In this document: positions 4,083-22,119 of the stretch, piece after piece
Position numbering within the stretch: position 1 is the first letter of the stretch
Layout: each line of letters opens with the position of its first letter
DNA from: a virus
Lineage: Duplodnaviria > Caudoviricetes
IMG/VR virus record: IMGVR_UViG_3300020436_000012
Coordinates: 1 to 61,533 of that record
Reading direction: 5' to 3' (one strand)
Length of the DNA: 61,533 bases
Position numbers and translations under genes: made by a program
Notes under the pieces: generated by a model
Seen by the model: only the letters and a program-made list of their open reading frames with translations
The model's database searches: none
Told to the model about the DNA's origin: nothing

Positions 4083-7000
4083 TGGCGAAAAAAACCAAAG
4101 TACAGATTGCAGTCGAGACTACAGGAAGTAAAAAAGCAGCCAAAGAGATAGAATCTGTTGGCCGCCAACAAACTCGTCTGGGTCAAGCTAGCGCTTCTGC
4201 TGGTAGAGAATTCTCTGCTCAAGCATCAGGTTTAGGCGGTCTTGTTTCTGCATATGCGGGAGCGGCTGCTACTATCTTTGCTCTTTCCGCAGCTTTTGAC
4301 GCCTTAAATAGAGCAGCAAGAGCTGAACAAACTCTTGCCGGAGTTAACGCTTTAGCTGCAGGTATCGGGGAAAGCGGCCCTGAAGTTCTAAGCATGATTC
4401 AAAGAATCACTAAAGGACAGTTGTCACTAGTTCAAGCAGCGGAGCTTGCTAACTTAGCTTTGTCCTCTGGTTTTAGCACTGAACAATTAGAAGGTTTTAC
4501 GGATGTTGCTATGAGAGCTTCTAGAGCATTAGGTAGAGACTTAACAGATTCATTCCAACGCCTTGTTCGAGGTGCTGTTAAGTTAGAGCCAGAACTTTTA
4601 GACGAATTAGGTATTTTCACTAGAATTGAGCCTGCTGCAGAAGCTTATGCTGCTTCTGTGGGTAAAGTCGCGAGTCAATTATCGAGATTTGAAAAAAGAC
4701 AGGCTTTTGCTAACGCAGTTTCAGAAGAGGGTGCAAGAAAGTATGCAGATATTGATATTGAAGCAGATACTGCCGCACAATCTCTTGAAAAATTAGCTGC
4801 TACGGTTAGTGATTTGGCAACTAATATCGGTGGGGTAATAGCTAGAGCACTTGCTCCCTTTGCAGAAATATTAACTTCACCTATTGCCGCAATTGGTTTG
4901 ATGGGCGTTTTAATTAAGACAGTTTTTGGAACAGCTTTGAGAGAAGCTACTCAGCGCCTAACCTCGTTTAACGCCAACCTTAGAACCTCTACAGACAATT
5001 TACAAGATAATTTAAGTAGCACTAAACGAATAGGACAGGCTAACTTAGAATTTTCAGAAGGCATGAAAGGGGTAACACTAAACGTAGCCAGAGCGTCTGC
5101 CGCAAACGAGGCTGAATTTAAGTCTTTAACCAAAAAAGCTAAAGCTCAGACAATTACAACAGCAGAAACTCGTAGATACAATCAAATAATAGAGCAAGAA
5201 ATTGCTGCGTTGAATAGAGAAAAAGCAGCCCTAGAAAATAGCGGTAAAGCGACAGCAGCTAAGACGGCTAGAATTGGGGTTCTTGAGAGAAGAGTAAAAC
5301 AATTTACCATTGCACAAACCGCCGCAAATGCAAGACTAAAAGCGTTCGGTCCAGTAGCAAAAGCCGCAGGGGCTGCTGCTATTGGTTTTGGTAAAGCAGT
5401 GGCATCTGCTGGTAAAATTGCATTAAGAGCTTTAGGCATTATTTCAATGATTGTTACTACTTTGTCTATTCTAATTACTGTAGGCGCAACAGTTTTAGAC
5501 GCTTTTGGTTGGTTAGATATTGTAGTTGAAAAAACCCAAAAAACAGTGCGATTTCTTAAAGAGCTTCTCAGCATTACAAAAGAATTTAATCAAGCGGGAC
5601 GGGGTATTGAATCTGTCGTGGAGAATATTGATATACCGGACACATTAACAGGTAAAGGAATTAGGCCTGATGGAAGGATAGGTAAAAGAAACCGTAAAAG
5701 ATCTGCAGATTCTATCAGAGATGCAGTGGAAGAAACCGTAAAAGCTGCTCCAGCAGCAGGGTTTGCTAGCGCTGACGAGTTTGTAAAAGCTTTTGAAAAA
5801 CAACTAGGTATACGAAGCGACTCAGTAACTGCCCTAGCTAGAAAGTTGTTTAAGAAAATAGGACAAGAATCTCAAGGTACTATGCGTGGTCGTACACTTT
5901 TTGCAGAGGCCGGTGGGATGACTTTAAAAGCAGCTGACAAAGTGTTAGAGGCAAGACGAGGAGAGTTACGCGTTACAAACGATATACTTAAAAATGAGAG
6001 TTTAAGCTTACAAAAGCTAGGAGCAAGATTTGCTTCAGCAAAAGAATATAATGGATTAACAGAAGAAGATAAAGAAAGACTGGAGAAACGAGATAAAGCT
6101 CAATTAAGCATTTTACAATCTCAACAACTTCAAGTTAATTTTCTACAAGCGTTACGCAGTGGCTCCGCTACCATAGAACAGCTTGAACAAAAACGTGGAG
6201 CAATATTAGCTAAAATTAAAAACTTATTGAAAGAAGGTGGTGACACAAATAAAGAGACAGCAAAAATCCTTCAAAAAGATTTAGATAATTTAAATGAAAA
6301 TGCAGAGGTTCAGATTGCAATTTTAAAAACAAGAAAACAAATTCAAGAAACTTTCTCTGCCCAAATTAAAGCCGCCGATCAACTTGGTAAAATGAATATT
6401 TTAACCTTAGAGGGTGATAAAGCCTCTTTTAAGATAGCAGTAAGCAAAAAAGAGCAGTCAGCTGCGCAACTAACAAATTTACAACAGCAATTTGCTGCAG
6501 GTAAAGAGTTTTTAGATGTTGAAAGAGGACGTAGAGATATAGGCAGAGAACTTACGGATATTGAAAAACAACGAGCTGCTTTAGCTCGTACAGCAGAGTT
6601 AGCTATTGTAGGACAATTCCAAGCTATTGTAGAACAAAGTCAAAAACTAAAAGATAATTTAGACAAACAAACTTTGGCATATAAAAATCAAATTACTCTT
6701 TTAAAACAACAAAATGCTTTACAGTCAGCAGATCGGTCGCTTAAACTAAGTGAACAAAGACTTAAAACAGAGCAAAAATCTCTTGCGAATAGTGTAAAAA
6801 CTCTTCAAGTTGAGAGAGCTTTGGCTAAGGCACGAGCGGAAGGAGCTGATTTAGATAGGCAGGGACGCAATAAGAGAGCAACTGATATTGCGGCTGAGTT
6901 TGGTGATTTGTTAAGTCCACAAAGACAGAGAGCACTAGAACTTAGAATCGCTAGGAGTGATTTAGAAGCTTTACGGAAGACAGTAGAAGCCCAAAAAGCT

Positions 7001-8698
7001 ACTATAAGAGATAGAGCAGCACTAGAAAAAACTTCTCTCGAAAAACAACAGAAAGAATTACAAGCACAATTAGGTGGAGAAGGGGGTGGCTTAATAGCAA
7101 AAAGATTTGCTGCGCAAAGAGCTCTTGATCTAGCAAAAATTAAAGCTGATCAGGAAACCCGAGAATTAACGGCTAACCAGCTTGAAGCACAGGTAAAATT
7201 ACTTGATAAGCAACTAGACGGTTTCAGAGGACACGTTGAAGGGTTAGCCCGTATTTTGGCAGCTGACAGAATTGAAAGACAGCTTATGATGTCAAAACCA
7301 GGCGAGTTTGCGCAAGGGGGTAGAACTGTTGCACAAGAAAGAAAGTTTAGACTTGATCAACAAATGGAAGGCGTTGCAACAGAGATAAATAACATAATAG
7401 CGAAGATTGGTGGTCAAGGAGGTGGACTTACTAACCTTCTTAATACTATTAGGACCCGATCAGACGAGATTTTTAAACTACAACAAAAGAATGTTGGGGG
7501 TAAAACGGATGCTGCTGAGGCTGACGCACGTCTCAAAGCACAAGAAGCTCTCAATGACATACTTGAGAAAATAAAAAATAACGCAACCATCACAGCCACT
7601 GAAATTCAAAAATTAGATAATAAACTCAAAGAAGCTGGAATTAGCACCGCAAACTTAGCGGCTAAATTTGCAGATGCGGATAACGAAATGTTGCAAATTG
7701 CTAAAGATGTTGCTTCCTCTTTATCTGGTGGAATTGCTCAAGGACTACGAGATTTAAATGATGCCTTACTAGAGGGCACACTAACAATGGAGAACTTTAA
7801 AGAAGGATTTAAAGAAACCTTTATAAATATTGCAAAAGATATTCAAGGAAAAATATTTGAAAGAACTGTAGTCAAACCTGTAGAAAGCTTTATCAATGAA
7901 AAAGTGTTAGGAGCTTTTGGTTTTGCTCCAGATAAAAAGATTGAAGATGCTTTGGTTACCTCTACTGGCGGAACAGCCATGCTAGTAACTATGGCTCCGA
8001 GCGCTACATCTGTTGATCCTACTGAAATACTTAAAAAGCAATGTGATGCTGCCTCAGTAAAAGTTGATAATTTAGGAACGTCTTCAGACACAGGAGGAAA
8101 CTTCTTGATGGATATGTTTGGTAAAATTGGAGATGTCTTAGGTGATTTTGGAAGTGCTTTGTTAGAGGCAGGACAAGGAGTATTTGATTTTGTTGGAAGT
8201 CTATTCCAAGGGATTAGTGGTCTCGGTGGCGGTGGCGGCGGTGGCTTCTTTGGCAGCATCTTTAAAGGCTTTGGAAGCTTCTTTGGTAATATCTTTGGAG
8301 GAGGTGCAAGTGTAGCACCGACAGTAGGTGTTCCTGTTTCTCCTTCTATTCTACCTCCTGTTACAATGTTTGCAGCACGCGGAGGTTTAGTCAAAAGAAT
8401 GGCAGCAGGTGGGATGTTAAGAGATAGAATTCCTGCTATGTTAGAGCCAGGTGAATTTGTGATTCGTAAACCAATGGCAAAAGCTATTGGAGGGCCAGCG
8501 CTAAATGCAATGAACGCTCACGGAGCTATGGGCGGTCCTCAGAATGTAGTGGTTAACATGCATAACGAAGGAACTGCCCAAGAAACCTCAGAACAGCCTA
8601 GTGTCCAAGTTAGCCCCGAAACAATCATTGTAGATATTGTCACTAGGGATTTGAAAAACAACGGTCCAATTAGACAAGGAATTAGGAAATCACTATAA
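4082..8698 (+). CDS. Tape measure protein
   Basis: 1538 aa, Ala-rich coiled coil; T5 pb2-like N-terminus (REFSAQASGLGGLVSAYAGAAA, EPELLDELGI); C-terminal FAARGG...IPAMLEPGEFV. Confidence 0.92.
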   Translation: MAKKTKVQIAVETTGSKKAAKEIESVGRQQTRLGQASASAGREFSAQASGLGGLVSAYAGAAATIFALSAAFDALNRAARAEQTLAGVNALAAGIGESGPEVLSMIQRITKGQLSLVQAAELANLALSSGFSTEQLEGFTDVAMRASRALGRDLTDSFQRLVRGAVKLEPELLDELGIFTRIEPAAEAYAASVGKVASQLSRFEKRQAFANAVSEEGARKYADIDIEADTAAQSLEKLAATVSDLATNIGGVIARALAPFAEILTSPIAAIGLMGVLIKTVFGTALREATQRLTSFNANLRTSTDNLQDNLSSTKRIGQANLEFSEGMKGVTLNVARASAANEAEFKSLTKKAKAQTITTAETRRYNQIIEQEIAALNREKAALENSGKATAAKTARIGVLERRVKQFTIAQTAANARLKAFGPVAKAAGAAAIGFGKAVASAGKIALRALGIISMIVTTLSILITVGATVLDAFGWLDIVVEKTQKTVRFLKELLSITKEFNQAGRGIESVVENIDIPDTLTGKGIRPDGRIGKRNRKRSADSIRDAVEETVKAAPAAGFASADEFVKAFEKQLGIRSDSVTALARKLFKKIGQESQGTMRGRTLFAEAGGMTLKAADKVLEARRGELRVTNDILKNESLSLQKLGARFASAKEYNGLTEEDKERLEKRDKAQLSILQSQQLQVNFLQALRSGSATIEQLEQKRGAILAKIKNLLKEGGDTNKETAKILQKDLDNLNENAEVQIAILKTRKQIQETFSAQIKAADQLGKMNILTLEGDKASFKIAVSKKEQSAAQLTNLQQQFAAGKEFLDVERGRRDIGRELTDIEKQRAALARTAELAIVGQFQAIVEQSQKLKDNLDKQTLAYKNQITLLKQQNALQSADRSLKLSEQRLKTEQKSLANSVKTLQVERALAKARAEGADLDRQGRNKRATDIAAEFGDLLSPQRQRALELRIARSDLEALRKTVEAQKATIRDRAALEKTSLEKQQKELQAQLGGEGGGLIAKRFAAQRALDLAKIKADQETRELTANQLEAQVKLLDKQLDGFRGHVEGLARILAADRIERQLMMSKPGEFAQGGRTVAQERKFRLDQQMEGVATEINNIIAKIGGQGGGLTNLLNTIRTRSDEIFKLQQKNVGGKTDAAEADARLKAQEALNDILEKIKNNATITATEIQKLDNKLKEAGISTANLAAKFADADNEMLQIAKDVASSLSGGIAQGLRDLNDALLEGTLTMENFKEGFKETFINIAKDIQGKIFERTVVKPVESFINEKVLGAFGFAPDKKIEDALVTSTGGTAMLVTMAPSATSVDPTEILKKQCDAASVKVDNLGTSSDTGGNFLMDMFGKIGDVLGDFGSALLEAGQGVFDFVGSLFQGISGLGGGGGGGFFGSIFKGFGSFFGNIFGGGASVAPTVGVPVSPSILPPVTMFAARGGLVKRMAAGGMLRDRIPAMLEPGEFVIRKPMAKAIGGPALNAMNAHGAMGGPQNVVVNMHNEGTAQETSEQPSVQVSPETIIVDIVTRDLKNNGPIRQGIRKSL

Positions 8699-10335
8699 TG
8701 GCTACTTATCCCTCAGACGCAACAATTACAACAACTAGCTTTACCACTGTAGGTACCACTAACTATTCAAACACAGGAACTGTTAGAGAATTTAATCTAT
8801 CAACCACTGTAGAACATGTTGGTGAGGTAGTTGCGACAGTAGATGGAGTTATTCAAGATACTTCCACATATGTTACCTCTAATAGTGGTAATTCTATCAC
8901 TTTTGTGACGGCTCCAGACGCAACAGCTCTTGCTCTAAAAGTAATAACTCTTCCCTCTAGGTATAGAACAACTCGTGTTTTTCCTCAAGTTAGGTATGTA
9001 GACTATAATAACGCAGCAGCAGATATTCAAACCATAAACTCAAACGCTTACATAATCAATGGAGAAATACAAAACTTTCCTACACCTACACAAACCCAAG
9101 TTAATTCTAAAAACGATTTACTAGTAACAGTTTCTGGTGTTGAACAAACGCAAGATGCTTATGTTTTTCCCGCTTCTAACACAGAACCAGAAACTACTAC
9201 AGGCTCTATTTCACGAAATTTAGGTTCTGGCGGTATTACTATTGGACAATCTGCTGATACTATCTTGTTGTTAAATTTTGGAAAAAACTTCACTGATGAA
9301 AGTATCAAAGCTAGAGGAGCTGCTACAGTTTCTGGAGTAACACTAAGTAGTACTAAAAAGTATGGAAACTCTGCGGCTGCTTTTAACGCGGGAACTGACG
9401 TTATTAGTTTTACAGACAGTGATGATTTTTCTTACACAGGCTCTTTTAGTATAGAATGTTTCGCGAGGTTTGAAGACGCAAGTGCGGCTAACACTATATT
9501 TTCTCATCGCACAGATGATAATAACTTTGTTAAACTAAGTAGAATGGCTAATAATAAAATTCAGTGGACCGTAAAAGAAAGTGGCTCAACAGTTGCAGAT
9601 TTACAAGGTGGATCTATTAGTGCTGATACATTTGTTCATGTAGCTATTACTCACGACAGAAGTGAAGCACACTCAAGACTTTTTGTTAATGGGACAATGG
9701 TTCAAGAAGACAACGCCGTCAACTATTCGATAACTCCTACTGGAACTTTTGATATAGGCAGAATAAACACAACTAGTGCTGCTACTAGAGAAAATTTAAA
9801 AGGTTTCATAGACTCTTTTAGGTTTGTAAATGAGACAAGAATTTATGATAGGACTTTTGTGGTGCCTAGAACAGAACTCACTCGTATACATACTCCTTTG
9901 CAATCAAATGATACACTAGTAATAAGACATTTTGATAGTACCACTGAAACGTTTGATAGATTTACTTCTATGGCAGATAGAAAACCAGATAAAGGATTTT
10001 CAACTTCTACAGAGTTTGATGTAGTCCAGTTCACTTCTCAGGCTGGATATGAAAAACGTAGTTTAAGAAGTCGTCGTTCTAAACGTGATTTTGATATTTC
10101 ATATACTAACATATCAGGAGTGGAAAAACACGCAATTGAACAATTTTACAGGGCTAGAAATGGCGCATTTGAAACTTTCACTTTTGACTTGACACACATC
10201 AATGAAATTGGTAATATACAAGCAAGGTTTGATGGTCCTTTAGGAATTACTCACGTATTTTCTGATGCTTCAAATACTAGTCTACAAAATAATTATTACA
10301 CAGTGAAGTTTAATTTAAAAGAGGTTTACGACTGA
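8698..10335 (+). CDS. Distal tail protein (lambda gpM/DUF2460-like C-terminus) with LamG-like insert
   Basis: C-terminal QAGYEKRSLR...EQFYRARNGAFETFTF; central FSIECF...FVHVAIT...RLFVNG...GFIDSFRF LamG signature. Confidence 0.7.
   Translation: MATYPSDATITTTSFTTVGTTNYSNTGTVREFNLSTTVEHVGEVVATVDGVIQDTSTYVTSNSGNSITFVTAPDATALALKVITLPSRYRTTRVFPQVRYVDYNNAAADIQTINSNAYIINGEIQNFPTPTQTQVNSKNDLLVTVSGVEQTQDAYVFPASNTEPETTTGSISRNLGSGGITIGQSADTILLLNFGKNFTDESIKARGAATVSGVTLSSTKKYGNSAAAFNAGTDVISFTDSDDFSYTGSFSIECFARFEDASAANTIFSHRTDDNNFVKLSRMANNKIQWTVKESGSTVADLQGGSISADTFVHVAITHDRSEAHSRLFVNGTMVQEDNAVNYSITPTGTFDIGRINTTSAATRENLKGFIDSFRFVNETRIYDRTFVVPRTELTRIHTPLQSNDTLVIRHFDSTTETFDRFTSMADRKPDKGFSTSTEFDVVQFTSQAGYEKRSLRSRRSKRDFDISYTNISGVEKHAIEQFYRARNGAFETFTFDLTHINEIGNIQARFDGPLGITHVFSDASNTSLQNNYYTVKFNLKEVYD
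10189..10217 (+). promoter_or_regulatory. Gene-internal sigma70-like promoter upstream of the gpL-J block
   Basis: TTGACA-17 nt-TAATAT with TG extension. Confidence 0.5.
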
Positions 10336-12323
10336 TGACTACCCGCACATATGATTTCATCTTGACAGTTACGCAACCAGATGTAATCGCTGTAGGAGAT
10401 ACCATTCTTAGTAATGTAACAGCAACTAGCGGAGAAGTGGTAGGTGTTGATGCTGCTAATGCTAACATCAAAGTTAAAGTAGCTAATGTAAATCAAGAAT
10501 TTGTAGTTGGAGAAAATGCAAGGTCAGTATTTAACCTAGTAGCTTCAAACGCTATTTCTGTTGCTTACAGTAATAGTTCTTCAACCACTGTAAATGGTAA
10601 TGCTTTTATAATTAATGGAGCAACAAATACTTTTTCTTTGCCTTCTGAAGCCTTATCTTTGAGCAATGTTACTTTAGATAATTTTGATGTATTTATAAAT
10701 AATAGAATTATACCTAAACAAAACATTAATTTTCCTAGTGCAACTTTAGGAGATACAGGGTTTGATATTAATCCTATCTCTCCAGTAACTTCTGGAACTA
10801 CTTTTACAAAAAAAGGGTTAAGAGAGTCTCTCACTAATAACCCACAAAGAGTTGCGACTCTTTTAAGTGATTTAATACTGCCGACTATTGACGCTTCAAT
10901 AGTAGCAGACGAAACTACCGAATTTGAGTATGAAATTAATTATGATAATTGGATTTCTGCTAACGCTTTTGCTGTGGATGTTAGAGTAGACACTGGAAAT
11001 AATGAAACTATCCCTTTTACTGCTGCTGCTTTTAGTGAGCAGAAAAATGGTGCTAATTTTGCCATTACCAATATAATAAACTCTAACTATATTAGAGAAA
11101 GAAATGCTTTCGTTCAAAATCCTGTTGTTAGATTATATAGTATATATTACCCAGGTGAGTGGTACAAGCCCAATGAAGTAGGCAACCCAACAAATGATGG
11201 AGAGGGTAGAAGATGGCCTGACGGATTCCCTCTTAGGTTTGCAGAAGTTAGAGGAGACTTAAATGCTGATGTAACTTATAATGTAGAATTTGGAGGAGTT
11301 AACTATACTCCTATGCCTATTAATAGTGGAGGTTTAGAAATAGACTCGTCAGGTAAAATCAATGAAATAAGTATTGACATATCTAACTTTGATGGTTTAA
11401 TTACTCAAATAGCTGAAAATCCAGATTTAGTAGGTAATAACACTTCTAACGCGTGTTTTGCTGTCGTTAATGGTGAGGTGGTGACGGGCATTGACCCAAG
11501 AACGATTCCAACCGGAGCAACTTATGCAGAATCAGAGCATGCAACAGTTTTAGCAGCACAAAGAACAAAAGGTTTAAATTTTAACCAATCAGTTAGAGAC
11601 TCTTATGGGGTAGATAATGCTTCATTCACTATATCTACTACAGCAGACGTAGGCGGGGAGTGGAAAAGAGAAAAAATGGATTCTCGTGACCTGTTAGGCG
11701 CGGTAGTAGAAATTAGATCTACTTTTGCTAACTTTTTAGATTACTGGCCAGAGTATGCTAGGGTAGATGCGGCTTTTGCAAACGTGATCGAAGTTAGTAC
11801 TGCATTACCTTATAGAGTTGGGGACAACGTAAAAAGTAGAAGTAACAGTTTTATAGCAACTATAGATGCAATAGAAGAAAATAGGTTCATATTTACAAAT
11901 GCTGCATTAGAAATAACAGTAGGAGACCCGTTATTAATTGAAAATATTGATAGTGATGATGAGGCATATATAGAAGATGTATTTAAGATTGACTCTTTGT
12001 CTGGGTTAGACGAAAAAGTTGCCACTTTTTCTTTAACAAGTTGGTTACAATTCTTTAAACTTAGGGTTCCAAAAAGAAAGTATTATAAAAATACTTGTCA
12101 GTGGATTTATAAAGGAGAAGAGTGTCAGTATCCTGGCCCTGCAGGAGGCACCATCCCTGGGACTAGTTTAAGCGCAAACTCAAACCCGATTGCTGCGAAT
12201 AACCAAATCGCAGGAAGTGTTCAAGGAGATGAGTGTGGTAAAAGTTTTGAATCTTGTCAGATTAGAAATAACACTATTCATTTTGGAGGCTTTCCCGGCA
12301 CTGGTAGAACTATTCCTAAGTAA
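10335..12323 (+). CDS. Minor tail protein L-like (hub, Fe-S Cys motif), enlarged
   Basis: C-terminal CQWIYKGEECQY...DECGKSFESCQIR...HFGGFPG is the lambda gpL four-Cys motif. Confidence 0.85.
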   Translation: MTTRTYDFILTVTQPDVIAVGDTILSNVTATSGEVVGVDAANANIKVKVANVNQEFVVGENARSVFNLVASNAISVAYSNSSSTTVNGNAFIINGATNTFSLPSEALSLSNVTLDNFDVFINNRIIPKQNINFPSATLGDTGFDINPISPVTSGTTFTKKGLRESLTNNPQRVATLLSDLILPTIDASIVADETTEFEYEINYDNWISANAFAVDVRVDTGNNETIPFTAAAFSEQKNGANFAITNIINSNYIRERNAFVQNPVVRLYSIYYPGEWYKPNEVGNPTNDGEGRRWPDGFPLRFAEVRGDLNADVTYNVEFGGVNYTPMPINSGGLEIDSSGKINEISIDISNFDGLITQIAENPDLVGNNTSNACFAVVNGEVVTGIDPRTIPTGATYAESEHATVLAAQRTKGLNFNQSVRDSYGVDNASFTISTTADVGGEWKREKMDSRDLLGAVVEIRSTFANFLDYWPEYARVDAAFANVIEVSTALPYRVGDNVKSRSNSFIATIDAIEENRFIFTNAALEITVGDPLLIENIDSDDEAYIEDVFKIDSLSGLDEKVATFSLTSWLQFFKLRVPKRKYYKNTCQWIYKGEECQYPGPAGGTIPGTSLSANSNPIAANNQIAGSVQGDECGKSFESCQIRNNTIHFGGFPGTGRTIPK

Positions 12324-12742
12324 TGACAGATTATATAAAATATTTAGGTATAAAACACAATTATCAAAGTATAAATTGTATTACCTTAATTGAAAAAATT
12401 TATAAAGAAGAATTAAAATCTGATGTTTTTAAAAGCTTATGGGCACATTTAAACTTATCAGAAGGTAAACCCATAGAGGGTAGTAGGTGGAAGTTTAAAA
12501 TAACTTTAGAAAAAATACAAGAGTGGATTGTGGTAAACGCACAAGAGATTAAAATAACAGATATTCAAGAATATGATGTAATAATATTTAAATCTAAAAA
12601 AAATAGACCAATTCATTTTGGAATGTATATAGGAGAAAATAAATTTATTCACGTTGAAGAGGACTCTTCATCTATGATTTCGTCCTTAAACCAAACATGG
12701 AGAGAACAACTGCACAGTATATATAGACGTAAAGAGGGGTAA
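12323..12742 (+). CDS. NlpC/P60 family peptidase (gpK C-domain-like), copy 1
   Basis: NCITL Cys, DVIIF, IHFGMYIG His, FIH. Confidence 0.75.
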   Translation: MTDYIKYLGIKHNYQSINCITLIEKIYKEELKSDVFKSLWAHLNLSEGKPIEGSRWKFKITLEKIQEWIVVNAQEIKITDIQEYDVIIFKSKKNRPIHFGMYIGENKFIHVEEDSSSMISSLNQTWREQLHSIYRRKEG

Positions 12743-12743
12743 A

Positions 12744-13196
12744 ATGTGGTATGAAAAATATAAAGGATTTCCTTATAAACATTTAGGGAATTGTCCAAAA
12801 ACAGGAATAGATTGTTTAAATTTAATTAGGTTAGTATATAGAGATGAAAAAAATATTACAATTCCTTATTCAACCCAAGATTTTTGTAACATTGTAGATC
12901 AAGATTGGTATAATAAAATAGACACTAATCCTTTTTTACAATTTAAAAACTCTAAGCTAGGATGGGAAGAAGTATCATTAGATAAAGTTTTACCTTTTGA
13001 TGTAGCAATAATGAGTATTGGCTCTACAAATAAAATAAATCATTGCGCTTTATTAGTAGAAAAAAATAAACTTTTACAAACAATGATAAATAGAATTTCT
13101 TGGATATCTCCTTATGGAAATTACTATAAACAATACACTTTAGGACTTTTTAGGTGGAAAGGATTATCAGATGACTTTGTTTTCAACATTAATTGA
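12744..13196 (+). CDS. NlpC/P60 family peptidase, copy 2
   Basis: YKGFPY...GIDCLNL Cys, NHCAL His, third position Q. Confidence 0.8.
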   Translation: MWYEKYKGFPYKHLGNCPKTGIDCLNLIRLVYRDEKNITIPYSTQDFCNIVDQDWYNKIDTNPFLQFKNSKLGWEEVSLDKVLPFDVAIMSIGSTNKINHCALLVEKNKLLQTMINRISWISPYGNYYKQYTLGLFRWKGLSDDFVFNIN

Positions 13197-13539
13197 CGCC
13201 ATGGGAAAGCACGCACAAGCTGAGTACCCTAAAGAGTGTTGCGGCATTATTACAAAAGATTTTAAATATGTACCTGCTAAAAACATAAGTCCTTTGCCTA
13301 AAGAAACTTTTATTCTTGACCCAGAAATATTATGGGAATATGAAGACAACTGCTGGGGCATATTTCATTCCCATCCAGGAGAAGAAAACCCTATACCTAG
13401 TGAAGAGGACAAACAAGGAGCAGTATTTGAAGAATTTAAATTTATTGTAGGATTTAATAATAAATTTTATATCTATTGGTTTGAAAAAAAGATAGACGCA
13501 ATTAAATTTGACGAATTTAAGGAAGATTATTTAAAGTGA
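13171..13539 (+). CDS. JAB/MPN metallo-isopeptidase (gpK N-domain-like), stand-alone
   Basis: YPKECCGII and FHSHP...PSEED JAMM motif. Confidence 0.88.
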   Translation: MTLFSTLIDAMGKHAQAEYPKECCGIITKDFKYVPAKNISPLPKETFILDPEILWEYEDNCWGIFHSHPGEENPIPSEEDKQGAVFEEFKFIVGFNNKFYIYWFEKKIDAIKFDEFKEDYLK

Positions 13540-14207
13540 AAATTACGCTAGAATTTCATCGTTCTTTGTTGAAATACACTGATGGAGTAAAAACCCACAC
13601 AATAACTTGTGATGATTTTTCCTCTTTAGTTTCTGGTATTTCACATTTATTTCCAAATCTTGGAAACTATATTAAAAGAGTACGATCAGCAGAACTTTTA
13701 GAAAATTTATGTTTATTAGATAAAAATAAAAAGTTGATTAGATCTGAAGTATATGAATTTAATACTTTTAAAGAAAATCATTCAACATTGTTTATAGTTC
13801 CCATGATGGCAGGAGCTGGAGGTAAAAAAGGATCATTTTTACAAATTGCTATCGGCGTTGCACTAATTGCTGCTTCTTTTGCTTTTCCGCAATTAGCTGC
13901 CTTTGAACTTATGGGGACAACTCTTGGAAAAATGATGTTATCGACAGGTATAAACATGGTGTTAGGAGGAATAATGGGTCTGATGACAGAAACTCCTAAA
14001 CCTCCAGAAAAACAAATATCAGATAACCAAGAAAGAATAGACAATAATATGTTTTCTGGTCTTCAGAATACTACCTCAAGTCAAAACAATGTGCCTGTTA
14101 ATTATGGGGCACCTAGAGTATCTGGACAATTAGTGAGCGGATTTGTAAAAAGCTTAAACCACGGAAAGGGTGATCTTATAAAAGTATCTGAGAGCTTTGG
14201 GGCATGA
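13536..14207 (+). CDS. Tail assembly protein I-like (Ubl N-domain), copy 1
   Basis: IVPMMAGAGG followed by hydrophobic helices and FSGLQNT...VPVNYG, the gpI pattern. Confidence 0.8.
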   Translation: MKITLEFHRSLLKYTDGVKTHTITCDDFSSLVSGISHLFPNLGNYIKRVRSAELLENLCLLDKNKKLIRSEVYEFNTFKENHSTLFIVPMMAGAGGKKGSFLQIAIGVALIAASFAFPQLAAFELMGTTLGKMMLSTGINMVLGGIMGLMTETPKPPEKQISDNQERIDNNMFSGLQNTTSSQNNVPVNYGAPRVSGQLVSGFVKSLNHGKGDLIKVSESFGA

Positions 14208-14914
14208 TTACTTTAGTTATACATTCTAATCTAAAACCATATTTTAAAGATAAAAGAGAGTTATATATCAGTTGTAATGACTATCATTCTTTATTAAGTT
14301 TTATGATAAACTCTTTTCCAGAGTTTAACACGTTATTAAAAAAACTAAAAACTAATTTTAACAGAGACTTCTTTATTTTGGACAAAAATAAAAAAAGAGT
14401 TAACTTAGCAGACGTACAAGCTAATAAGAAATTAGAAAAAGATGCTGTTTACTATTTAGTGCCTTCTTTAATCGGTGCTGGAGGAAAAGGTGGTTTTATG
14501 CAGATAGCTCTTGGTGTCGCTATTATGGCACTGGCTTTTTACATGGCCCCCGCTGTGGTAGGAGCGATGGGGCCTACAATGGGAATGGGTACAACAGCTT
14601 TTACGGTAGGAACAATGGCGGTTACTTATACTAATATAGCAATGTTTGGAGCTTCAATGGCTTTACAAGGAATAATGAGTATAGTACAGAAACCCCCAAA
14701 TAGAGCACAACCAGGCGGTTCTACTTTTAATGACGATGGATCAAAAACTCAAAATAGTTTGTTTACTGGTTTAAATAATACTATCGAAGTAGGGTTTCCT
14801 GTTGGGATGAATTATGGAGCGACTAGAATTGGGGGGCAAATGATAAGTGGATTTGTAAAAAGTTTGAATCATGGTAAAAATGATATAATCAAAGTTTCGG
14901 AGAGTTTTGCATAA
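14204..14914 (+). CDS. Tail assembly protein I-like (Ubl N-domain), copy 2
   Basis: LVPSLIGAGG, FTGLNNT...PVGMNYG; C-terminus nearly identical to copy 1. Confidence 0.8.
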   Translation: MITLVIHSNLKPYFKDKRELYISCNDYHSLLSFMINSFPEFNTLLKKLKTNFNRDFFILDKNKKRVNLADVQANKKLEKDAVYYLVPSLIGAGGKGGFMQIALGVAIMALAFYMAPAVVGAMGPTMGMGTTAFTVGTMAVTYTNIAMFGASMALQGIMSIVQKPPNRAQPGGSTFNDDGSKTQNSLFTGLNNTIEVGFPVGMNYGATRIGGQMISGFVKSLNHGKNDIIKVSESFA

Positions 14915-17900
14915 TGAGTGTATATAAAAAATATACCAATGTTAGTGGAGGGTCTGTCCCTATCATATCTGGAAGCAAAGGAGGCTGTTTTCCAGCAGGA
15001 TCTTTAGTGTCTACTCCCCGTGGAGAAATACCTATTGAAGACATAAAACTTAATGATAAAGTATATTGTTTTGATGATAACGATAAGCGTTGGGTATCTT
15101 TTGTAGAAAAGACTTGGGAGCATGTTCCTTCTGAAACAGTAGGTTATATATTAACTATTACTCACGAAAAAGGTAAATTGCGGGTTACAGATAATCATTA
15201 TTTGTATGATGAAAACAATGAATATAAAGAAGCTAAAGACTGGAAAGTTGGAGAATATTTAACTTCAGAGGACAACGATTTTAGTAAGATTTTATCAATT
15301 AAGAGTGAAGATTATTTAAACGAGACAGTATATAATTTAACAGTTAATACTTATCACAACTACATTTGTCAAGGAATTCGCCTGTCTAATAAAGGCGGAG
15401 GAGGAAAAGGAGGGGGCGGAGCGCGTGCGGCTGCAACAGAATCTCCAAATACTTTATTTTCTACCGACATTTTGTTTTTAACTGTTGCGTTGGGTGAAGG
15501 CCCTATTTATAGAATTAATCCTAATGGTCCCCAAGATATTGAGATTAACGAAGGAGCTATTGATGACTTAATTAATATTGATGGAGACGGAGAAGAGAAC
15601 AACGAAGTATTTAAAACTTTAACAACTACAGGAACTCTAACTCAAGAGCCTTTAGCTGTGTTTGGTGCTGAGACTATCACTCCTCAAAATTTAAATAACC
15701 CTGTAAGTTTAAAAAATGGTAATGTGGAAGGTATTCCAAAAGCGTCAGTTACTTTACAAAATACTAGCGCAAAAGATTGGGACAAGATAAGATTTAACTT
15801 TGTTATTCAAGGACTTCAAAAATCTGATGGAAATGGTAACGTTACAGGTTCTAGTGTTTCTATTACTATTCAAGTTTTTGATCGAACAGGTACGACTTTA
15901 ATCGCTGAATTAGGAGAAGATAGTAGAACAATTAGCGGAAAAACTAACACGAGATTTAAATTTCAAAGAGATATTTTAATTCCAGAAGCTTCTAGATCGC
16001 TTGATGGATATAAATTTACGATTGAGAAAACTTCTTCTGATAGTGATTCTAATAGAACGCAAGACAACGTTCAGTTTATTGGATGGGATGAGATAGAGTT
16101 TGATGATATGGCATATCCTAGAACTTCTTTAATTGGTTATGCTATCAAATCTTTTAATGAGCATGAAGGTAGAGTTCCTACATTTACCTCTTTAATAAAA
16201 GGGCTTTTAGTAAAAGTTCCCTCTAATTATAATCAACCTATTTTATCTAATGGAGAAATAGATTGGAGAGAATTAGAAATTCCCGAAACAGGCACTTCGA
16301 CTATTGGTGGAGAATCAACACAAATTGGATATACGCAAAAAGGATATCAATTACAAACTACAGTAGAAGGTGTAGCTGAAAAGAAAATTAGTCTCATTAG
16401 TGGTAGCGCAGGCACTGGCTATGCCTCAGATGCTACTCCTTCTGTTACTATTTCAGGAGGAGGAGGTAGTGGCGGTGCTGCTACTGCAAATATAGGAACT
16501 AACAAAGTCTCTAGTTTTACTTTAACAAATGCGGGTAGTGGGTATACCTCTGCTCCTACGGTAACAGTTGCAGCCCCAGCGGCGGTAACCTTTAATGGAG
16601 CTTCCGCAGTTAATGATAGCTCTGATACTATAACAATTACAGGACATCCTTTTGCTACAGGAGATCAAGCAACTTACAGCGCTGGTGGAGGTACTGCTAT
16701 TTCTGGAACAGGTGTTAGTACTGCGTCTGGAGGGGTGTTCATCATTAGTGTTGATGCTAATACGGTAAAACTAGCAACCAGTTCGGTAAACTCACTCTCA
16801 GGAACTGCTATTGATATAACATCAGGATCTGGGTCTAGCCACACACTAACTGGCATGACAGCTACCGCTACGGCTACACTAACTACAGAACAATTTAATG
16901 CAAACCCGATAATTTATCAAGGTGTTTGGGACGGCACTTTTGTATACTCTTGGACTCAAAACCCGATTTGGATTGTTTATGATATTTTAACAAACCGAAC
17001 TTATGGTCTAGGAATAGATGAAGAAAATATAGATAAGTTTATGTTTTATAAAGTTGCACAATATTGTGATGCCTGTGATTTTACTACAGGCGCTTTTATT
17101 GGGGTGTCTGGTTTTGCAGACGGAACTTTTAGACATAAACCTAGAGGATTATTTACTACTGTTAGAGAAATACTTGTAGGACTAGATAGAGGTGTTCAAG
17201 TAAAAGAACGTAGATTTATGAATGATATTAGTATACAAGAAGATGTTCAAGTGATGGATACTATTAATAAACTCACTTCAACATTTAGAGGACTATTATA
17301 CTACGCAGGAGGTAAAATTACATTAAATATTGATATACCAGAAGATACTCCTGTTGCTGTTTTTAATGACGCTAATATTAGAAAAGACACTTTAAAATTC
17401 TCAGGCACTAAAGAAAGTGATATTATAACAGGAGTAGACGTATCTTATATTGAACCTGCGAATCACTTTAAAAGAGAAGTGGTAAGAATTGATGATCAGG
17501 AAGCTTTAAGAGATAGAAATCAGATAGAAAATATTCAAACAGTTGATTTAGCTGGGGTCACTCGTAGAAGTCAGGCATCTAGATATGGACAATATTTAAT
17601 TGCTTCTTCTAAATATTTAAGAAGACAAGTAGAGTTTCAGTGTGGGGTAGATGCCCTTAATCTAGTCGTCGGAGACATTATAACTGTCGCTACTAAGCAA
17701 GGGGGAATTGCTTATGGATTCGGAGGAAAAGTAGCTGCAGATTCTCAAATAACAGGTGGTGGTGTAGCAAATGCTAATATTCTTTTAGAACATTTTACTA
17801 GCCCTGCTATTACTGCTAGCACTTTTACTGGTAATACTAATCCTCTCGCAGTGAGAATAATTGGTATGGAATCTGATAGAATTGACTACTATTTAGTAGA

Positions 17901-20900
17901 TAACGTTTCTTTTACTGCGAACGCTACAGGTAATGCAGACTCAGGCATAGACTTAATAGAGATTGAAACTATAGCAAGATATAACTATAGTACAAAAGCT
18001 TTTGTGAACGGGAGAGACTTTTTAGCTAATAATGTTCCTAAAAAAGGAGACCTTTGGACTTTTGGAGAAACTGGAGGTGACCCAGATAATTTTTATACCG
18101 CTCAGAATGATCGGCTTTTTAAAATTACCACTATATCAAGAGGAACAGAAGAAGACGTGACTATAACGGGAATTGAGTATATTTCTAACGTATATGTTGA
18201 CTCTGATTCTCTAATTGCTTATGTGCCTGTTAGATATGATGACACCGTGTCTAGTTTGACCCCTCCTCCTTCTCCAGAACTTAATTTATCTTCTAGGCCT
18301 AGAGAGTTAGGGGATGGTTCTGTTACAAACGACTTGTTAGTTGATGTATTTACTGATCAAACAGGGTACCCTCTTTTTGTAGAGACTGATTTATCAATCG
18401 CTAGACCTGATTTTAATTTTACTCCATACTTAACTTCCAATGCAAATACAGGAGCAACAACCTTTACTGCATCTAATGTTTCTCCCTTAGCTAATGGGGA
18501 AGTATCTATCTTGTCAGGTAAAAACGGTTTTAAAACAAACACAGGAGAAATAAAACTACTAGTGGACGCAGTGACAAATCCTGATGTAACAGATACTTCC
18601 AATGGAAATGTGCAATTTAGTATTAAATCTTTAAATCTAGCTTTTGATATTAATCAAATGAAACACGTTTTAGAAGTTAATGATGGTGGTGGAGCTGTCG
18701 CTAACGTTTTAAAAGGTTTCGATAGAGTTTCTTTTGACTTAAACCAAAAACTTACTACAGGAACAGGATTATTAGGTTTTGTTGATCATGGCACTAGACT
18801 CACCCAATATAGTGCTAATATTGTTGCTCATTCGACAACAATGGATGCAGGAACAATAAAAATACAAAATGAACACTCTGGAGAATCAACGCTACTTGAT
18901 CAACTTCCTACTCCTCCGTTTTTTGTTTCTATTAATCAACTGGTAGATACTAGGTTTATGGATAATAGGTCTTTATATATTTCTGGTAGTAGTTTTACTG
19001 AAATACACAGTAATGTCCTTACAGGAAATTTAACATCTAGTTCAAGCTTTATACAACCTTTAGTAAGAGGTGCTCCTTTTAAAGAAGCAGTGAGAGTGTT
19101 CATAGATGGAATAGAAAAAACTACAGGAGACTGGAATTTTACTAGCTCGGCCAACGATTCAATAACTGTTCCCGGACTAAGCACCGAAGCTACAATTAGA
19201 GTAGAGGCAGAGCATTATACTGTTCCTGCAGTCGAGCCAGGGGATAATTTACAGTTTCATTCTGGAAATGTTTATTCTATAGTTAACGCGTCATATTCTA
19301 CAGACAGCGCCGATTTTAACGCATCGTTAACAGCTAATAGTATGTATAGGGTAACTTTAGGTTCTAAATTACGTTCTAACACAAGAGGAACTGTAGCTGT
19401 TAATATTAGTCCTGATCCTATAGGAACAACTAATAATGTTGTTGGTAGAAGTTTTACTTTTGATTATAACAAAACACTATTCCCAGGTACGTTCTCCCTA
19501 TCTAATAATGCTATTTATTCTGTGTTAACTCCAACAACTTTTGACGGATTTCAAATTCCTAACGATAGACTAGTAAGAGATATTGATCCCGGACTTTATG
19601 TATTAAGAGCGCAAAACGTTAACCAAGCAGGTAGAAGAAGTCCTATTGTGACCGAATCTATTTTAATTAATGAAATACCTATCCAAAGAGTAGAAAATTT
19701 ACTTATTACAGAGTCTTTATATATTGAACAGTCTGTTGGTGCTGTAACAAGAGTAACAGTAGAATTTGATCATCTTCAAAACCAAAGTGTTACTGACTAC
19801 GAACTCTCTTATAAGTTAGGAGGTACTGCCGCAGACCTAACCTCTTTTAATACAGTTAAGCTTCCCGCTACTGGGGTGGATACTGACGGTAAAATGAGAT
19901 TTACTATTAACAATGTTGATCGTGGACTAACCTCTAGTGTTAATAATATAACAGTGCGAGTTACTGCTTTAAATAAATCAATTAAAGGAGTAACCTTTGA
20001 AAAAAGCCAACCCATTTTAGGTAAACAAATACCTCCACAAAATATTCAAAACTTTAGTGTTTCTCAATTAGGAGAAAATATTCACTTATTCTGGGCGTAT
20101 GTTACTAATGCAGACGGCTCGTTGATTGACCCAGATTTAAGAGATATTGTTATTAAAAGAACACAAGGTATAGTGCAACCTGCTGATTTTGCTTCTGCTT
20201 TTGTTAATGCACCAGAGTTTATTGTAGTTAGTTCTGGGTCGACCAGGAAAGTGGCTGCTATTGACACGTTTGGAACATTTACTTATTTAGCTAAAACTCG
20301 TGATACTAGTGGTAACTTAAGCACAGATGTAGTTGGTGTAACTTTTACCTCAGTAAAATTAGCCGAGTTGTTCTTATTACAGTCTTATAGTGAAGATAAT
20401 CCAGGAGGTAACGTCATAACAGGAGTGCCTCTAACTAACCGTGCCGAATTTAACTTTCCAAGTTTGGCAAATTCAAATACGGCAGGTATTTCGATAGCTG
20501 CACAACCTACTTCGTTAGTTGATAATGCTAACGGTACTGCTGTAGGATTTTCTGTGATAAGTGGTAGTCCTACAGATATTTTAGCTACAGGAAGTCAATC
20601 AATATATCAAACACAAGTAAGAGATATAGGCGCTTTAACATCTGTTAGTTTAACTGCTAACATACAAGGCACAGCAACTACCTCTACAGACTGGAATACT
20701 CTACACCGAGATATAGCCACAGGAGTTACAGAAGTTAGTAGTGACAACACCATACTGAAAGATACAGGATTAGGCGGTTCTGAGGGAGTAGGCACAGTTC
20801 TTGGATTTGGTAACACTGTTGCAGCGATCCATACCGCTGACATCCCAAACCAGACCCTAGTGAGTGGTGGAGCCACCGGAAATGTTTTTGCGATTTGGAA

Positions 20901-22119
20901 TGACGGACAGTATTCAACTACGTTTTCAGACGGAGCAGGAGTTAAATCAATCACCGCGATAACACAAGCAGAGCCAGGTATTATAACTGTATCTGCTGAT
21001 CACTTTTTAGCAGCAACCACTCCCGCAACAAGAAGTATTATACATGACGTAATAGGTATGACACAATTAAATAGTAGAGAAGTTTATGTAACTAGAAGCA
21101 CCTCAAATACTACTCTTCAACTATTTAATTATACAGCTAAATCTGGTGTTACTATTTCAGCAGTCACAAAAGCAAACCCTGCAGTTGTAACTGCCTCTGG
21201 TCATGGTCTGAGCGATGGAGACAAAATAATTATTCAAGGGGTAGTGGGCATGACTGAACTAAACGGTCTTGTTTTCACTGTCGCTAATAAAACTACAAAT
21301 ACTTTTGAGCTTTCAGGAACAAATAGCAGTTCTTTCACTACTTACTCCTCTGGGGGTGTAGTTCACGAAGCTATTAATACTTCATCAGGACACTCAGCCT
21401 ACTCTAGTGGAGGGGTTGTAGACTTAGGAGACTATTCTAATGCTAATTCTTACGCTTTAATTGCTAGTGTGATTGCCGCAGATCAAATTAAATTAGGAAA
21501 AGTATACCACGCTAACGGGGCATCAACAGGAGCTAATGCATTTGCCAACTTGACAACTGTTGCGAGTTCATATAAACTAGTAGATCTAAATCAGTTTGCT
21601 GACTCTTCTTCTGCGGCGACCACATTCTTAGGAGATTCTAGTGCTTTGTCAAGGGTTACAGAAATTAGAACTTCTGAGTCTGACCCGTTTTTTGCTAATG
21701 GTAATGTAAATATTAGTACGTTTACTGGAACTTCTGATGATAGATTCACTACTTTTAGTACTGGATCAAGATTAGCTAGATTTTTCCAAATCAGAGAAAT
21801 TATAACAAACGCAAAACCAACTGAAACTAATTTTACGTTAGACACTTTTGAATATACGGTAGATAAACCAACTCAAGAGTTTAGAACTAGAGTTACTTTT
21901 GCAGGAACTAGCGATACTGGAGGAAATACTGCAGTAGACTATTCTTCTGCCGGATTTATTGAACCCCCGTTTATAACTATGACCCCTGTGGGAGCAATAG
22001 GAAAAATTGCAACAGTTATAGGCTCAACAAATACAGGAGCAAATATTAATGTCGTTAACTCATCTGATCAAGCACCTTCTACAGGTGTAGTGTTAGATTT
22101 TGTGGCACAAGGAATTTAA
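14914..22119 (+). CDS. Central tail fibre/tip attachment protein J-like with N-terminal Hint domain
   Basis: 2401 aa; LGEGPI, YPRTSLIG, GLLVKVPSNY, WDGTFVYSWTQNPIW, GVTRRSQASR gpJ motifs; FN3-like segments. Confidence 0.9.
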   Translation: MSVYKKYTNVSGGSVPIISGSKGGCFPAGSLVSTPRGEIPIEDIKLNDKVYCFDDNDKRWVSFVEKTWEHVPSETVGYILTITHEKGKLRVTDNHYLYDENNEYKEAKDWKVGEYLTSEDNDFSKILSIKSEDYLNETVYNLTVNTYHNYICQGIRLSNKGGGGKGGGGARAAATESPNTLFSTDILFLTVALGEGPIYRINPNGPQDIEINEGAIDDLINIDGDGEENNEVFKTLTTTGTLTQEPLAVFGAETITPQNLNNPVSLKNGNVEGIPKASVTLQNTSAKDWDKIRFNFVIQGLQKSDGNGNVTGSSVSITIQVFDRTGTTLIAELGEDSRTISGKTNTRFKFQRDILIPEASRSLDGYKFTIEKTSSDSDSNRTQDNVQFIGWDEIEFDDMAYPRTSLIGYAIKSFNEHEGRVPTFTSLIKGLLVKVPSNYNQPILSNGEIDWRELEIPETGTSTIGGESTQIGYTQKGYQLQTTVEGVAEKKISLISGSAGTGYASDATPSVTISGGGGSGGAATANIGTNKVSSFTLTNAGSGYTSAPTVTVAAPAAVTFNGASAVNDSSDTITITGHPFATGDQATYSAGGGTAISGTGVSTASGGVFIISVDANTVKLATSSVNSLSGTAIDITSGSGSSHTLTGMTATATATLTTEQFNANPIIYQGVWDGTFVYSWTQNPIWIVYDILTNRTYGLGIDEENIDKFMFYKVAQYCDACDFTTGAFIGVSGFADGTFRHKPRGLFTTVREILVGLDRGVQVKERRFMNDISIQEDVQVMDTINKLTSTFRGLLYYAGGKITLNIDIPEDTPVAVFNDANIRKDTLKFSGTKESDIITGVDVSYIEPANHFKREVVRIDDQEALRDRNQIENIQTVDLAGVTRRSQASRYGQYLIASSKYLRRQVEFQCGVDALNLVVGDIITVATKQGGIAYGFGGKVAADSQITGGGVANANILLEHFTSPAITASTFTGNTNPLAVRIIGMESDRIDYYLVDNVSFTANATGNADSGIDLIEIETIARYNYSTKAFVNGRDFLANNVPKKGDLWTFGETGGDPDNFYTAQNDRLFKITTISRGTEEDVTITGIEYISNVYVDSDSLIAYVPVRYDDTVSSLTPPPSPELNLSSRPRELGDGSVTNDLLVDVFTDQTGYPLFVETDLSIARPDFNFTPYLTSNANTGATTFTASNVSPLANGEVSILSGKNGFKTNTGEIKLLVDAVTNPDVTDTSNGNVQFSIKSLNLAFDINQMKHVLEVNDGGGAVANVLKGFDRVSFDLNQKLTTGTGLLGFVDHGTRLTQYSANIVAHSTTMDAGTIKIQNEHSGESTLLDQLPTPPFFVSINQLVDTRFMDNRSLYISGSSFTEIHSNVLTGNLTSSSSFIQPLVRGAPFKEAVRVFIDGIEKTTGDWNFTSSANDSITVPGLSTEATIRVEAEHYTVPAVEPGDNLQFHSGNVYSIVNASYSTDSADFNASLTANSMYRVTLGSKLRSNTRGTVAVNISPDPIGTTNNVVGRSFTFDYNKTLFPGTFSLSNNAIYSVLTPTTFDGFQIPNDRLVRDIDPGLYVLRAQNVNQAGRRSPIVTESILINEIPIQRVENLLITESLYIEQSVGAVTRVTVEFDHLQNQSVTDYELSYKLGGTAADLTSFNTVKLPATGVDTDGKMRFTINNVDRGLTSSVNNITVRVTALNKSIKGVTFEKSQPILGKQIPPQNIQNFSVSQLGENIHLFWAYVTNADGSLIDPDLRDIVIKRTQGIVQPADFASAFVNAPEFIVVSSGSTRKVAAIDTFGTFTYLAKTRDTSGNLSTDVVGVTFTSVKLAELFLLQSYSEDNPGGNVITGVPLTNRAEFNFPSLANSNTAGISIAAQPTSLVDNANGTAVGFSVISGSPTDILATGSQSIYQTQVRDIGALTSVSLTANIQGTATTSTDWNTLHRDIATGVTEVSSDNTILKDTGLGGSEGVGTVLGFGNTVAAIHTADIPNQTLVSGGATGNVFAIWNDGQYSTTFSDGAGVKSITAITQAEPGIITVSADHFLAATTPATRSIIHDVIGMTQLNSREVYVTRSTSNTTLQLFNYTAKSGVTISAVTKANPAVVTASGHGLSDGDKIIIQGVVGMTELNGLVFTVANKTTNTFELSGTNSSSFTTYSSGGVVHEAINTSSGHSAYSSGGVVDLGDYSNANSYALIASVIAADQIKLGKVYHANGASTGANAFANLTTVASSYKLVDLNQFADSSSAATTFLGDSSALSRVTEIRTSESDPFFANGNVNISTFTGTSDDRFTTFSTGSRLARFFQIREIITNAKPTETNFTLDTFEYTVDKPTQEFRTRVTFAGTSDTGGNTAVDYSSAGFIEPPFITMTPVGAIGKIATVIGSTNTGANINVVNSSDQAPSTGVVLDFVAQGI
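14986..15390 (+). other. Hint (intein-like/BIL) domain, 135 aa, no homing endonuclease
   Basis: Starts CFPAGSLV, has VTDNH block B, ends VYNLTV..HNY...RLSN; next residue is Lys. Confidence 0.88.

Follow-up and report, generated by a model that had tools for sequence, protein, structure and literature searches.

A probable lambda-type tail-tip maturation module with ubiquitin-like gpI domains, a stand-alone JAB peptidase and an optional Hint domain in gpJ of an uncultured siphophage

The tail-tip locus

The IMG/VR virus record IMGVR_UViG_3300020436_000012 (Caudoviricetes; 61,533 bases, estimated to be about 55% complete) was analysed over its whole length, which is called the window below and to which all positions refer, with a focus on a stretch of its siphophage tail module where two NlpC/P60 peptidases, one JAB peptidase, two gpI proteins and the central tail fibre protein gpJ are encoded in a row on the + strand. 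DNA comparison against INPHARED gave no match to the window, i.e., no close relative among the cultured phages. NlpC/P60 paralog a (12323-12742, 139 amino acids (aa)) and paralog b (12744-13196, 150 aa) matched Pfam NLPC_P60 with 33.7 and 39.3 bits, respectively (cut-off 23), and are followed by a stand-alone JAB/JAMM metallopeptidase (13171-13539, 122 aa; Prok-JAB with 44.5 bits, cut-off 25). Downstream lie gpI-1 (13536-14207, 223 aa) and its paralog gpI-2 (14204-14914, 236 aa), both assigned to PHROG 32 (tail assembly protein) at E-values of 1e-26 to 1e-28 (2e-26 for gpI-2). The last gene of the row, gpJ (14914-22119, 2401 aa), is composed of a 24-aa leader (14914-14985) ending in VPIISGSKGG, a Hint domain of the bacterial intein-like (BIL) type (14986-15390, gpJ residues 25-159, 135 aa; PT-HINT 31.4 bits, cut-off 27.7, and Hint 30.0 bits, cut-off 29.7, with 34.9 bits in a further scan of the record), and the body of the central tail fibre/host-specificity protein (15391-22119; FNIII-A_GpJ, Phage-tail_3 and PHROG 31, central tail fiber J), which opens with KGGGGKGGGG. 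These genes, and every sequence string quoted for them, had been pointed out by a first-pass annotation made from the letters and their open reading frames (ORFs), and all were found in place. We read the locus, with a probability of roughly 0.55, as a module by which an uncultured siphophage assembles and matures a lambda-type tail tip, with a self-excising BIL-type Hint domain added to it; it is a variant of the known lambda-type system and not a new system.

Fold and tail motif of gpI

A search with gpI in 1.84 billion representatives yielded 900 relatives at E-values up to 0.001, and an alignment of 102 sequences was used for the analyses described here. The AlphaFold2 model of gpI-1 computed from this alignment reached a predicted local distance difference test score (pLDDT) of 93-98 over residues 1-90, in the order strand-helix-strand-helix-helix-strand-helix-strand; confidence falls at the Gly tail, after which two long hydrophobic helices follow. 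Foldseek comparison of the model with the PDB retrieved CysO, MoaD, SAMP1, MOCS2A, Urm1 and ubiquitin (probability up to 1.00, target-normalised template modelling score 0.6-0.7), with E-values of merely 5e-3 to 5e-2 because the query was the entire 223-residue model. As modelled, the N-terminal domain of gpI-1 is a MoaD/ThiS-like beta-grasp; lack of this fold was among the outcomes that the first-pass annotation had named as refuting its proposal, and for gpI-1 the fold is there. The gpI-2 N-domain is presumably ubiquitin-like (Ubl) as well, given 37% identity to gpI-1 in the alignment and the same tail motif. In gpI-1 the Ubl domain (residues 1-91) leads into the tail (V88-K97), the two hydrophobic helices and a lambda-gpI-like C-terminal part, and phmmer aligned residues 83-215 with residues 86-218 of lambda gpI (8IYK chain I) at an E-value of 6.5e-14. 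Longer gpI matches (P0149, P0153 and others) were found to bear C-terminal extensions, neither Hints nor tandem gpI.

The junction strings are IVPMMAGAGG/KKG at residues 87-99 of gpI-1 and LVPSLIGAGG/KGG at residues 85-97 of gpI-2 (a slash marks the junction), and contain the tail motifs VPMMAGAGGK (13797-13826), which is the predicted segment for both docking and cleavage by JAB and lies in the modelled JAB interface, and VPSLIGAGGK (14459-14488). Across the 102 sequences the consensus reads LVPxIxGGGGKxG, with G93 invariant, P89 nearly invariant and the PxhxG core present in 100. In ORFs of at least 100 aa, the pattern [VILT]P.[ILVMF].G..G occurred four times; 300 shuffles gave 0.33 occurrences on average and never more than 3. 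The four matches are gpI-1, gpI-2, gpJ and an antisense ORF. All three proteins carry Lys after their Gly runs. When the sequences are anchored on the Pro, the G/C junction of gpJ lies one residue beyond the GG/K junction of gpI. Thus, of the similar junction that had been noticed in three consecutive proteins, the motif holds up as both conserved and above chance, and the exact register does not, since in gpJ the junction is one residue further out.

Peptidases and the model of JAB with gpI-1

The window JAB carries the E...HxH...S..D motif of JAB/JAMM metallopeptidases, and none of its residues E22, H66, H68, S77 and D80 varies among the 15 sequences compared (window and related contigs), which bears out its earlier description as an intact peptidase. 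Catalytic Cys and His are present in all 23 aligned NlpC/P60 sequences (11 of paralog a, 12 of paralog b), the two paralogs being only about 20-23% identical to each other. By their sequences, both NlpC/P60 peptidases and JAB look active.

A modelled JAB complex had been suggested as a check and was built for gpI-1. JAB (15-row alignment) and gpI-1 residues 1-112 (102-row alignment) were modelled together, and the median interaction prediction score from aligned errors (ipSAE) was 0.70 vs 0.02 for the best control. The ipSAE mark of the test, which this pair passed, is reached by 58 of 80 solved complexes and by 2 of 110 mismatched pairs. Individual runs agreed in at least 84% of contacts, and the pLDDT of the partner was at least 75. 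On the JAB side the modelled interface includes all five JAMM residues (E22, H66-P69, S77, D80); on the gpI-1 side it is formed by residues 86 and 88-97 (VPMMAGAGGK) together with patches of the Ubl body (residues 8-10 and 54-67). The model thus places the gpI-1 tail in the JAB active site and supports binding of the two proteins.

The leader of gpJ

The search with gpJ residues 1-330 yielded 174 relatives, of which the best 120 were listed; a Hint domain is present in 44 of these 120 and absent from 76. In all 76 Hint-less relatives the leader is joined directly to the KGGGG start of the body, as in P0117, where M-A-R-N-Y-T-K-Y-H-N-T-L-I-P-V-I-T-G-S-K-G-G is immediately followed by K-G-G-G-G. 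Leaders measure 13-26 aa among the relatives compared and 13-30 aa in the phage group as a whole, with Gly runs of variable length, and PxhxG occurs in 76/76 Hint-less and 44/45 Hint-bearing gpJ sequences (window counted). Judged from this alignment, the leader is native to gpJ throughout the phage group. When the 76 Hint-less N-termini were compared with the gpI profile using hhalign, the sole match was VPxIxGaxGG on ivPxIxGgGGk (P 0.0033), and the segment shared by leader and gpI is the segment modelled in the JAB groove. Lineage-specific co-variation of gpI tails with gpJ leaders was not evident. The leader may be a JAB substrate or a docking peptide, a weaker proposal than that made for the gpI tail.

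The Hint domain

In gpJ the insertion site of the Hint domain is constant, between the first post-leader Gly run and the [K/G]GGG stretch. The G/C junction is found in 45/45 sequences, with domains of 129-135 residues; in the window, Cys25 opens the domain and N159/KGGGGKGGGG closes it. No substitution is seen among the 45 sequences at C25, T92, N94, H95 and N159; the domain ends in His-Asn in 36 and in Ser-Asn in 9, and these nine make up the clade of the window. At +1 there is K (26 of the 45) or G (19) and never Cys, Ser or Thr, which makes the canonical transesterification of class 1 inteins impossible. A PDB sequence search with the Hint gave as its sole solved match the bacterial intein-like domain 2LWY (E 2.4e-4). 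Resemblance to the BIL domains (Clostridium thermocellum, PDB 2LWY) extends to the N-terminal Cys, TxxH, the C-terminal Asn, the missing +1 nucleophile, the small size (129-135 aa) without an endonuclease, and a host protein that is a variable surface or structural one, not a conserved enzyme. The gpJ Hint differs from them in its host protein, the central tail fibre of a phage, where its site between leader and poly-Gly hinge is fixed, and in the Ser-Asn end of the window clade in place of His-Asn; its activity is predicted. With class 1 mini-inteins it shares Hint blocks A, B, F and G, Cys1, the terminal Asn and a precise presence/absence between alleles, whereas its +1 residue is never Cys, Ser or Thr and it interrupts a Gly linker instead of a conserved active site. 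Among the BIL domains it is tentatively placed in type A rather than type B.

On a FastTree phylogeny of 117 gpJ bodies, the Hint state changes at least 3 times, with well-supported branches forcing only 1 change; given so few changes, the Hint appears to be mostly vertically inherited. One related contig has a Hint 93% identical to that of the window vs 84% identity over gpJ residues 1-400, which suggests constraint on the Hint domain. A scan of IMG/VR with a Hint-only alignment found 84 confirmed relatives, of which 80 were kept. In 77 of these 80 loci the Hint lies at the gpJ leader junction (three of the 77, L093, L111 and L112, belong to gpJ subfamilies with different leaders), and in the remaining three it lies elsewhere in Gly runs, i.e., in a tape measure protein (TMP)-like protein (L069) and in GP38-like Gly-rich adhesins (L080, L123). 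The Hint of L069 (1697-5038; G/C ... VHN/F-GGG) is found at residue 269 of a 1114-aa Ala/Lys-rich TMP-like protein, which also has a GEFV motif like the tape-measure C-terminus of the window. Those of L080 (1979-3289) and L123 (86-1330) are located in poly-Gly runs of Gly-rich proteins of 415-437 aa, the former matching the phage tail fibre adhesin GP38 in Pfam and the latter being similar by sequence only. This family of Hints apparently has a preference for Gly runs in the tail proteins of phages. A weak INPHARED match of the Hint, in a P-loop NTPase of a Vibrio phage, was set aside as an unrelated intein context. Among the literature matches listed, no paper was found that links a Hint domain or an intein to gpJ or the central tail fibre.

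From its distribution among aligned relatives, the Hint is an optional BIL-type insertion. It had been counted as part of the processing cassette in the first-pass annotation, a claim that has to be dropped, since the Hint is absent from 76 of the 120 listed relatives that keep the same leader and since it occurs with one or with two gpI.

Copy number of gpI and of the peptidases

Upstream of gpJ, two gpI-like ORFs were found in 39 and one in 30 of the 69 Hint-bearing loci (of 80) that could be judged, one of the 39 (L090) resembling a single split ORF. All 11 Hint-less loci that could be judged have one gpI, and all 11 are from one subclade. No claim is made on an association between Hint and gpI duplication, for which there is too little power because the Hint-less loci represent a single subclade and the Hint changes state only about three times on the tree. 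Locus L039 combines a Hint with one gpI and one NlpC/P60. No Hint was found inside gpI among the 80 Hint loci, 27 gpI-2 relatives and 150 listed gpI-1 representatives, and neither a second JAB nor a second Hint is present in the 61.5-kb record, which has one copy of each. Relatives with a single gpI and no Hint also carry both NlpC/P60 paralogs; hence, the state with two NlpC/P60 is old and widespread in the phage group. Rather than belonging to one conjugation machine, the Hint and the duplicated gpI are two optional additions that are independent of each other.

In the gpI tree the two copies are sisters in four lineages (L010, L072, the L094 group and the L122 group; support 96-99), so that tandem duplication or homogenisation of gpI has been recurrent; in the clade of the window they are not sisters. 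The lambda gpI trimer holds three of six tape-measure C-termini (accessible text of PMC12617516), and by analogy we speculate that a second paralog could alter the stoichiometry of a lambda-like gpI trimer with the tape measure. In the L094-L114 group, which has two gpI, the downstream copy gave no hit in the search for the Ubl tail motif, and the upstream one has only GSG after PxhxG; one paralog there may have lost its processing site. On an unrelated high-GC phage contig (L015, 815-5275), an ORF of 1487 aa has about 150 N-terminal residues ending in HGGGGGGGK, hydrophobic helices 49% identical to gpI-2 residues 116-192, and about 1200 further residues; by sequence it looks like the TAPI-TAPJ fusion mentioned in the text available of PMC1779556.

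Neighbouring genes and further observations

Upstream of the peptidases, the + strand encodes the tape measure (4082-8698, 1538 aa), a distal tail protein with LamG (8698-10335) and a gpL homologue (10335-12323; Phage_tail_L, 87.6 bits). The gpL homologue and NlpC/P60 paralog a abut in the window; in Hint-less relatives such as L036 (3967-5093), and in L010 (2121-3320), they are separated by a gene-sized gap of about 1.1 kb. The C-terminal region of the tape measure has a run of GLGGGGGGGFFGSIFKGFGSFFGNIFGGG from window position 8219 (residue 1380) onward, then PAMLEPGEFV. In lambda, the tape measure is cut in its Gly-rich C-terminal region by an unknown protease (PMC12617516, sections available), and the GLGGGGGGGFFGSIFKGFGSFFGNIFGGG run, which does not contain the PxhxG motif, is a candidate maturation site comparable to that of lambda gpH to gpH*. 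In the C-terminal receptor-binding part of gpJ, residues 2090-2152 (21181-21369) matched Pfam E1_FCCH with 52.9 bits (cut-off 29.5), and the precomputed match recurs in many gpJ relatives. It is an odd second tie to the ubiquitin system; the matched region is small, comes without an adenylation domain and is probably just a structural fibre domain.

Conjugation, ligation and counter-defence

No match to ThiF/E1 (PF00899) was found in the 61.5-kb record (about 55% complete), with control genomes giving matches, and any conjugation or cross-linking would thus have to proceed without visible machinery. The cross-linking system that had been considered for the tail tip loses its ground here, as no ThiF/E1 is in the record and most listed relatives are Hint-less. 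A form of ligation that needs no E1 could be envisaged, where the Hint, in a Hedgehog-like manner, makes a thioester of the C-terminal Gly of the leader and the peptide is passed to the Lys-rich N-termini of gpI-1, gpI-2 or gpJ exposed by JAB, giving covalent links in the tail tip. A G/C junction with intact Cys1 and TxxH makes the Gly thioester chemically plausible, and the Lys residues after the Gly runs of the three proteins would suit as acceptors. Against this, the Hint-less majority of the listed relatives builds the same gpJ, so that no essential step can depend on the Hint; the donor peptide would be tiny (13-26 aa), neither an acceptor motif nor a ligase was found, and the conserved terminal Asn points to self-excision. 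We regard such ligation as very improbable, the least probable of the explanations considered.

A countermeasure against Ubl-type defences, likewise raised in the first-pass annotation, would have JAB, alone or aided by the Ubl domains in the role of decoys, remove or absorb the conjugates placed on the central tail fibre by a host Bil-type system. The central tail fibre is the target to which the bacterial ISG15-like Bil system couples a Ubl, and an anti-Bil role of phage deubiquitinase (DUB) domains is already in print as speculation (both in 10.1101/2023.09.04.556158, the latter in its Discussion; partial text). Both systems comprise a Ubl and a JAB-type DUB and involve the central tail fibre. 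Bil, in contrast, is host-encoded and needs E1 and E2, whereas the window has no E1, its Ubl is fused to a structural protein and its genes are located inside the tail module. Moreover, JAB in the model docks on the Ubl of the phage itself, and the window holds nothing Bil-specific. Counter-defence is for these reasons considered very unlikely, if slightly less improbable than E1-free ligation; the lambda-type maturation module remains our preferred reading.

Discussion

The accessible text of PMC1779556 (Iyer, Burroughs and Aravind, 2006) describes TAPI, the gpI of the lambda-type TAPK/TAPI/TAPJ (K/I/J) system, as containing a ThiS/MoaD-like domain that ends in a conserved Gly; it predicts JAB to cleave at this Gly, and the domain is probably released by the JAB of TAPK. 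The window shares with this system the gene order L, peptidase(s), I, J, the adjoining JAB and NlpC/P60 activities, and a gpI with Ubl domain, conserved Gly tail, Gly-rich linker and homologous C-terminal part. It differs in that gpK is represented by three genes (two NlpC/P60 paralogs and JAB), gpI is duplicated, and the 2401-aa gpJ has a leader repeating the Ubl tail motif and a Hint after the leader. Cryo-electron microscopy of lambda resolved gpI only from residue 101, 134 or 135 onward (PMC11101478, PMC12617516, PMC10721106), and the N-domain is left unresolved in PMC11101478 and PMC10721106; gpK was not found according to PMC12617516 and PMC10721106, one of which reports virion mass spectrometry with gpI but without gpK (all three in the parts available).

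Under the preferred reading, the function of gpK would be split between two active-looking NlpC/P60 peptidases and one JAB metallopeptidase, with gpI as two paralogs. Each gpI would consist of a MoaD-like Ubl domain followed by the VPxhxG-GG tail, a Lys and two hydrophobic helices. JAB would dock on the gpI tail and clip off the Ubl domain, and the membrane-active C-terminal part of gpI would remain as a plug inside the tip. The gpJ leader could, less certainly, also be recognised by JAB, as a substrate or docking peptide of another kind than gpI, and its removal would give a lambda-like gpJ N-terminus. For the Hint, inserted precisely in the poly-Gly/Lys hinge of gpJ, self-removal is most likely; it would cleave itself off at both its N- and C-terminal ends or splice without a nucleophile, by way of the +1 amine. 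The long persistence of a non-splicing Hint at an otherwise unbroken junction of leader and hinge would make most sense if mature gpJ can do without the leader; a dispensable leader fits a natural processing site, though as an argument only. The wider proposal, in which a single JAB would process both gpI and the gpJ leader, three substrates in all, via a portable 10-residue Ubl-tail signal, is put forward tentatively and at somewhat less than even odds. In this respect the multi-substrate maturation suggested previously is reasonable, because the shared motif is real and conserved in the alignments and its gpI-1 copy is modelled in the JAB active site; the Hint, as an optional insertion, has to be taken out of it.

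Several observations weigh against parts of this reading. JAB-ubiquitin complexes have already been solved; hence, the pass of the JAB/gpI-1 model may partly reflect memory of, or likeness to, known structures, and the alignments used were author-built. The match between leader and gpI is short (11 columns), for which reason its hhalign probability is merely 9.7%, and the leader comes without the Ubl body that touches JAB in the model (gpI residues 8-10 and 54-67). The AlphaFold2 model of gpJ residues 1-330 (8-row alignment) had a mean pLDDT of 39.7. The three lambda structure papers (PMC11101478, PMC12617516, PMC10721106) are, in their accessible sections, silent on whether lambda gpI is cut. 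Cleavage and splicing by the Hint are indistinguishable in silico; the Hints of L069, L080 and L123 lie inside proteins with large N-terminal parts that simple cleavage would split, which favours splicing or a selfish element.

These last loci bear on an alternative in which the Hint is a selfish or neutral BIL-type mini-intein of poly-Gly linkers, spliced out via attack of the +1 amine on the Gly thioester. The leader would then stay on gpJ as a structural N-terminal strand, its likeness to gpI would reflect a common design of beta-strand and Gly hinge or a shared non-catalytic partner, and JAB would act on gpI only, if at all. Splitting the TMP-like and GP38-like proteins looks harmful, and the low probability of the leader match agrees with this alternative as well. 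The Hint is flanked on both sides by Gly or Lys without exception, residues that, on chemical reasoning, should hinder ligation without a nucleophile the least; the reference list of the BIL paper PMC7664689 includes a work reportedly titled as ligation without nucleophilic side chains. The alternative is opposed by the leader motif being the exact gpI segment modelled in the JAB groove, and by the few gains and losses of the Hint (at least 3 changes on the 117-row tree) together with its strong conservation, unlike what is seen in an actively mobile element. Lambda gpJ, which opens directly with the Gly/Lys-rich stretch, is not known to carry a leader of this kind, and this also fits the alternative poorly. 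In addition, BIL domains, which lack the +1 nucleophile, yield mainly N- and C-cleaved products (PMC7664689, text available in part). On balance, we consider the selfish mini-intein doubtful, yet by far the most serious competitor of the lambda-type maturation module.

What the Ubl domain of gpI and the JAB domain of gpK do when siphophage tails are assembled has been an open prediction since 2006. If the maturation reading is right, the phage group described here would be a cleaner test system for this prediction, with JAB as a separate small protein, one or two Ubl substrates and a candidate minimal substrate in the leader, and the alleles with a domain predicted to cut itself at the same junction would serve as a natural control. 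Should the leader act as a signal for JAB, about 10 residues would be all that a prokaryotic DUB needs for recognition. For intein biology, the gpJ Hints represent a large, conserved, nucleophile-free Hint family fixed at one site of a virion protein.

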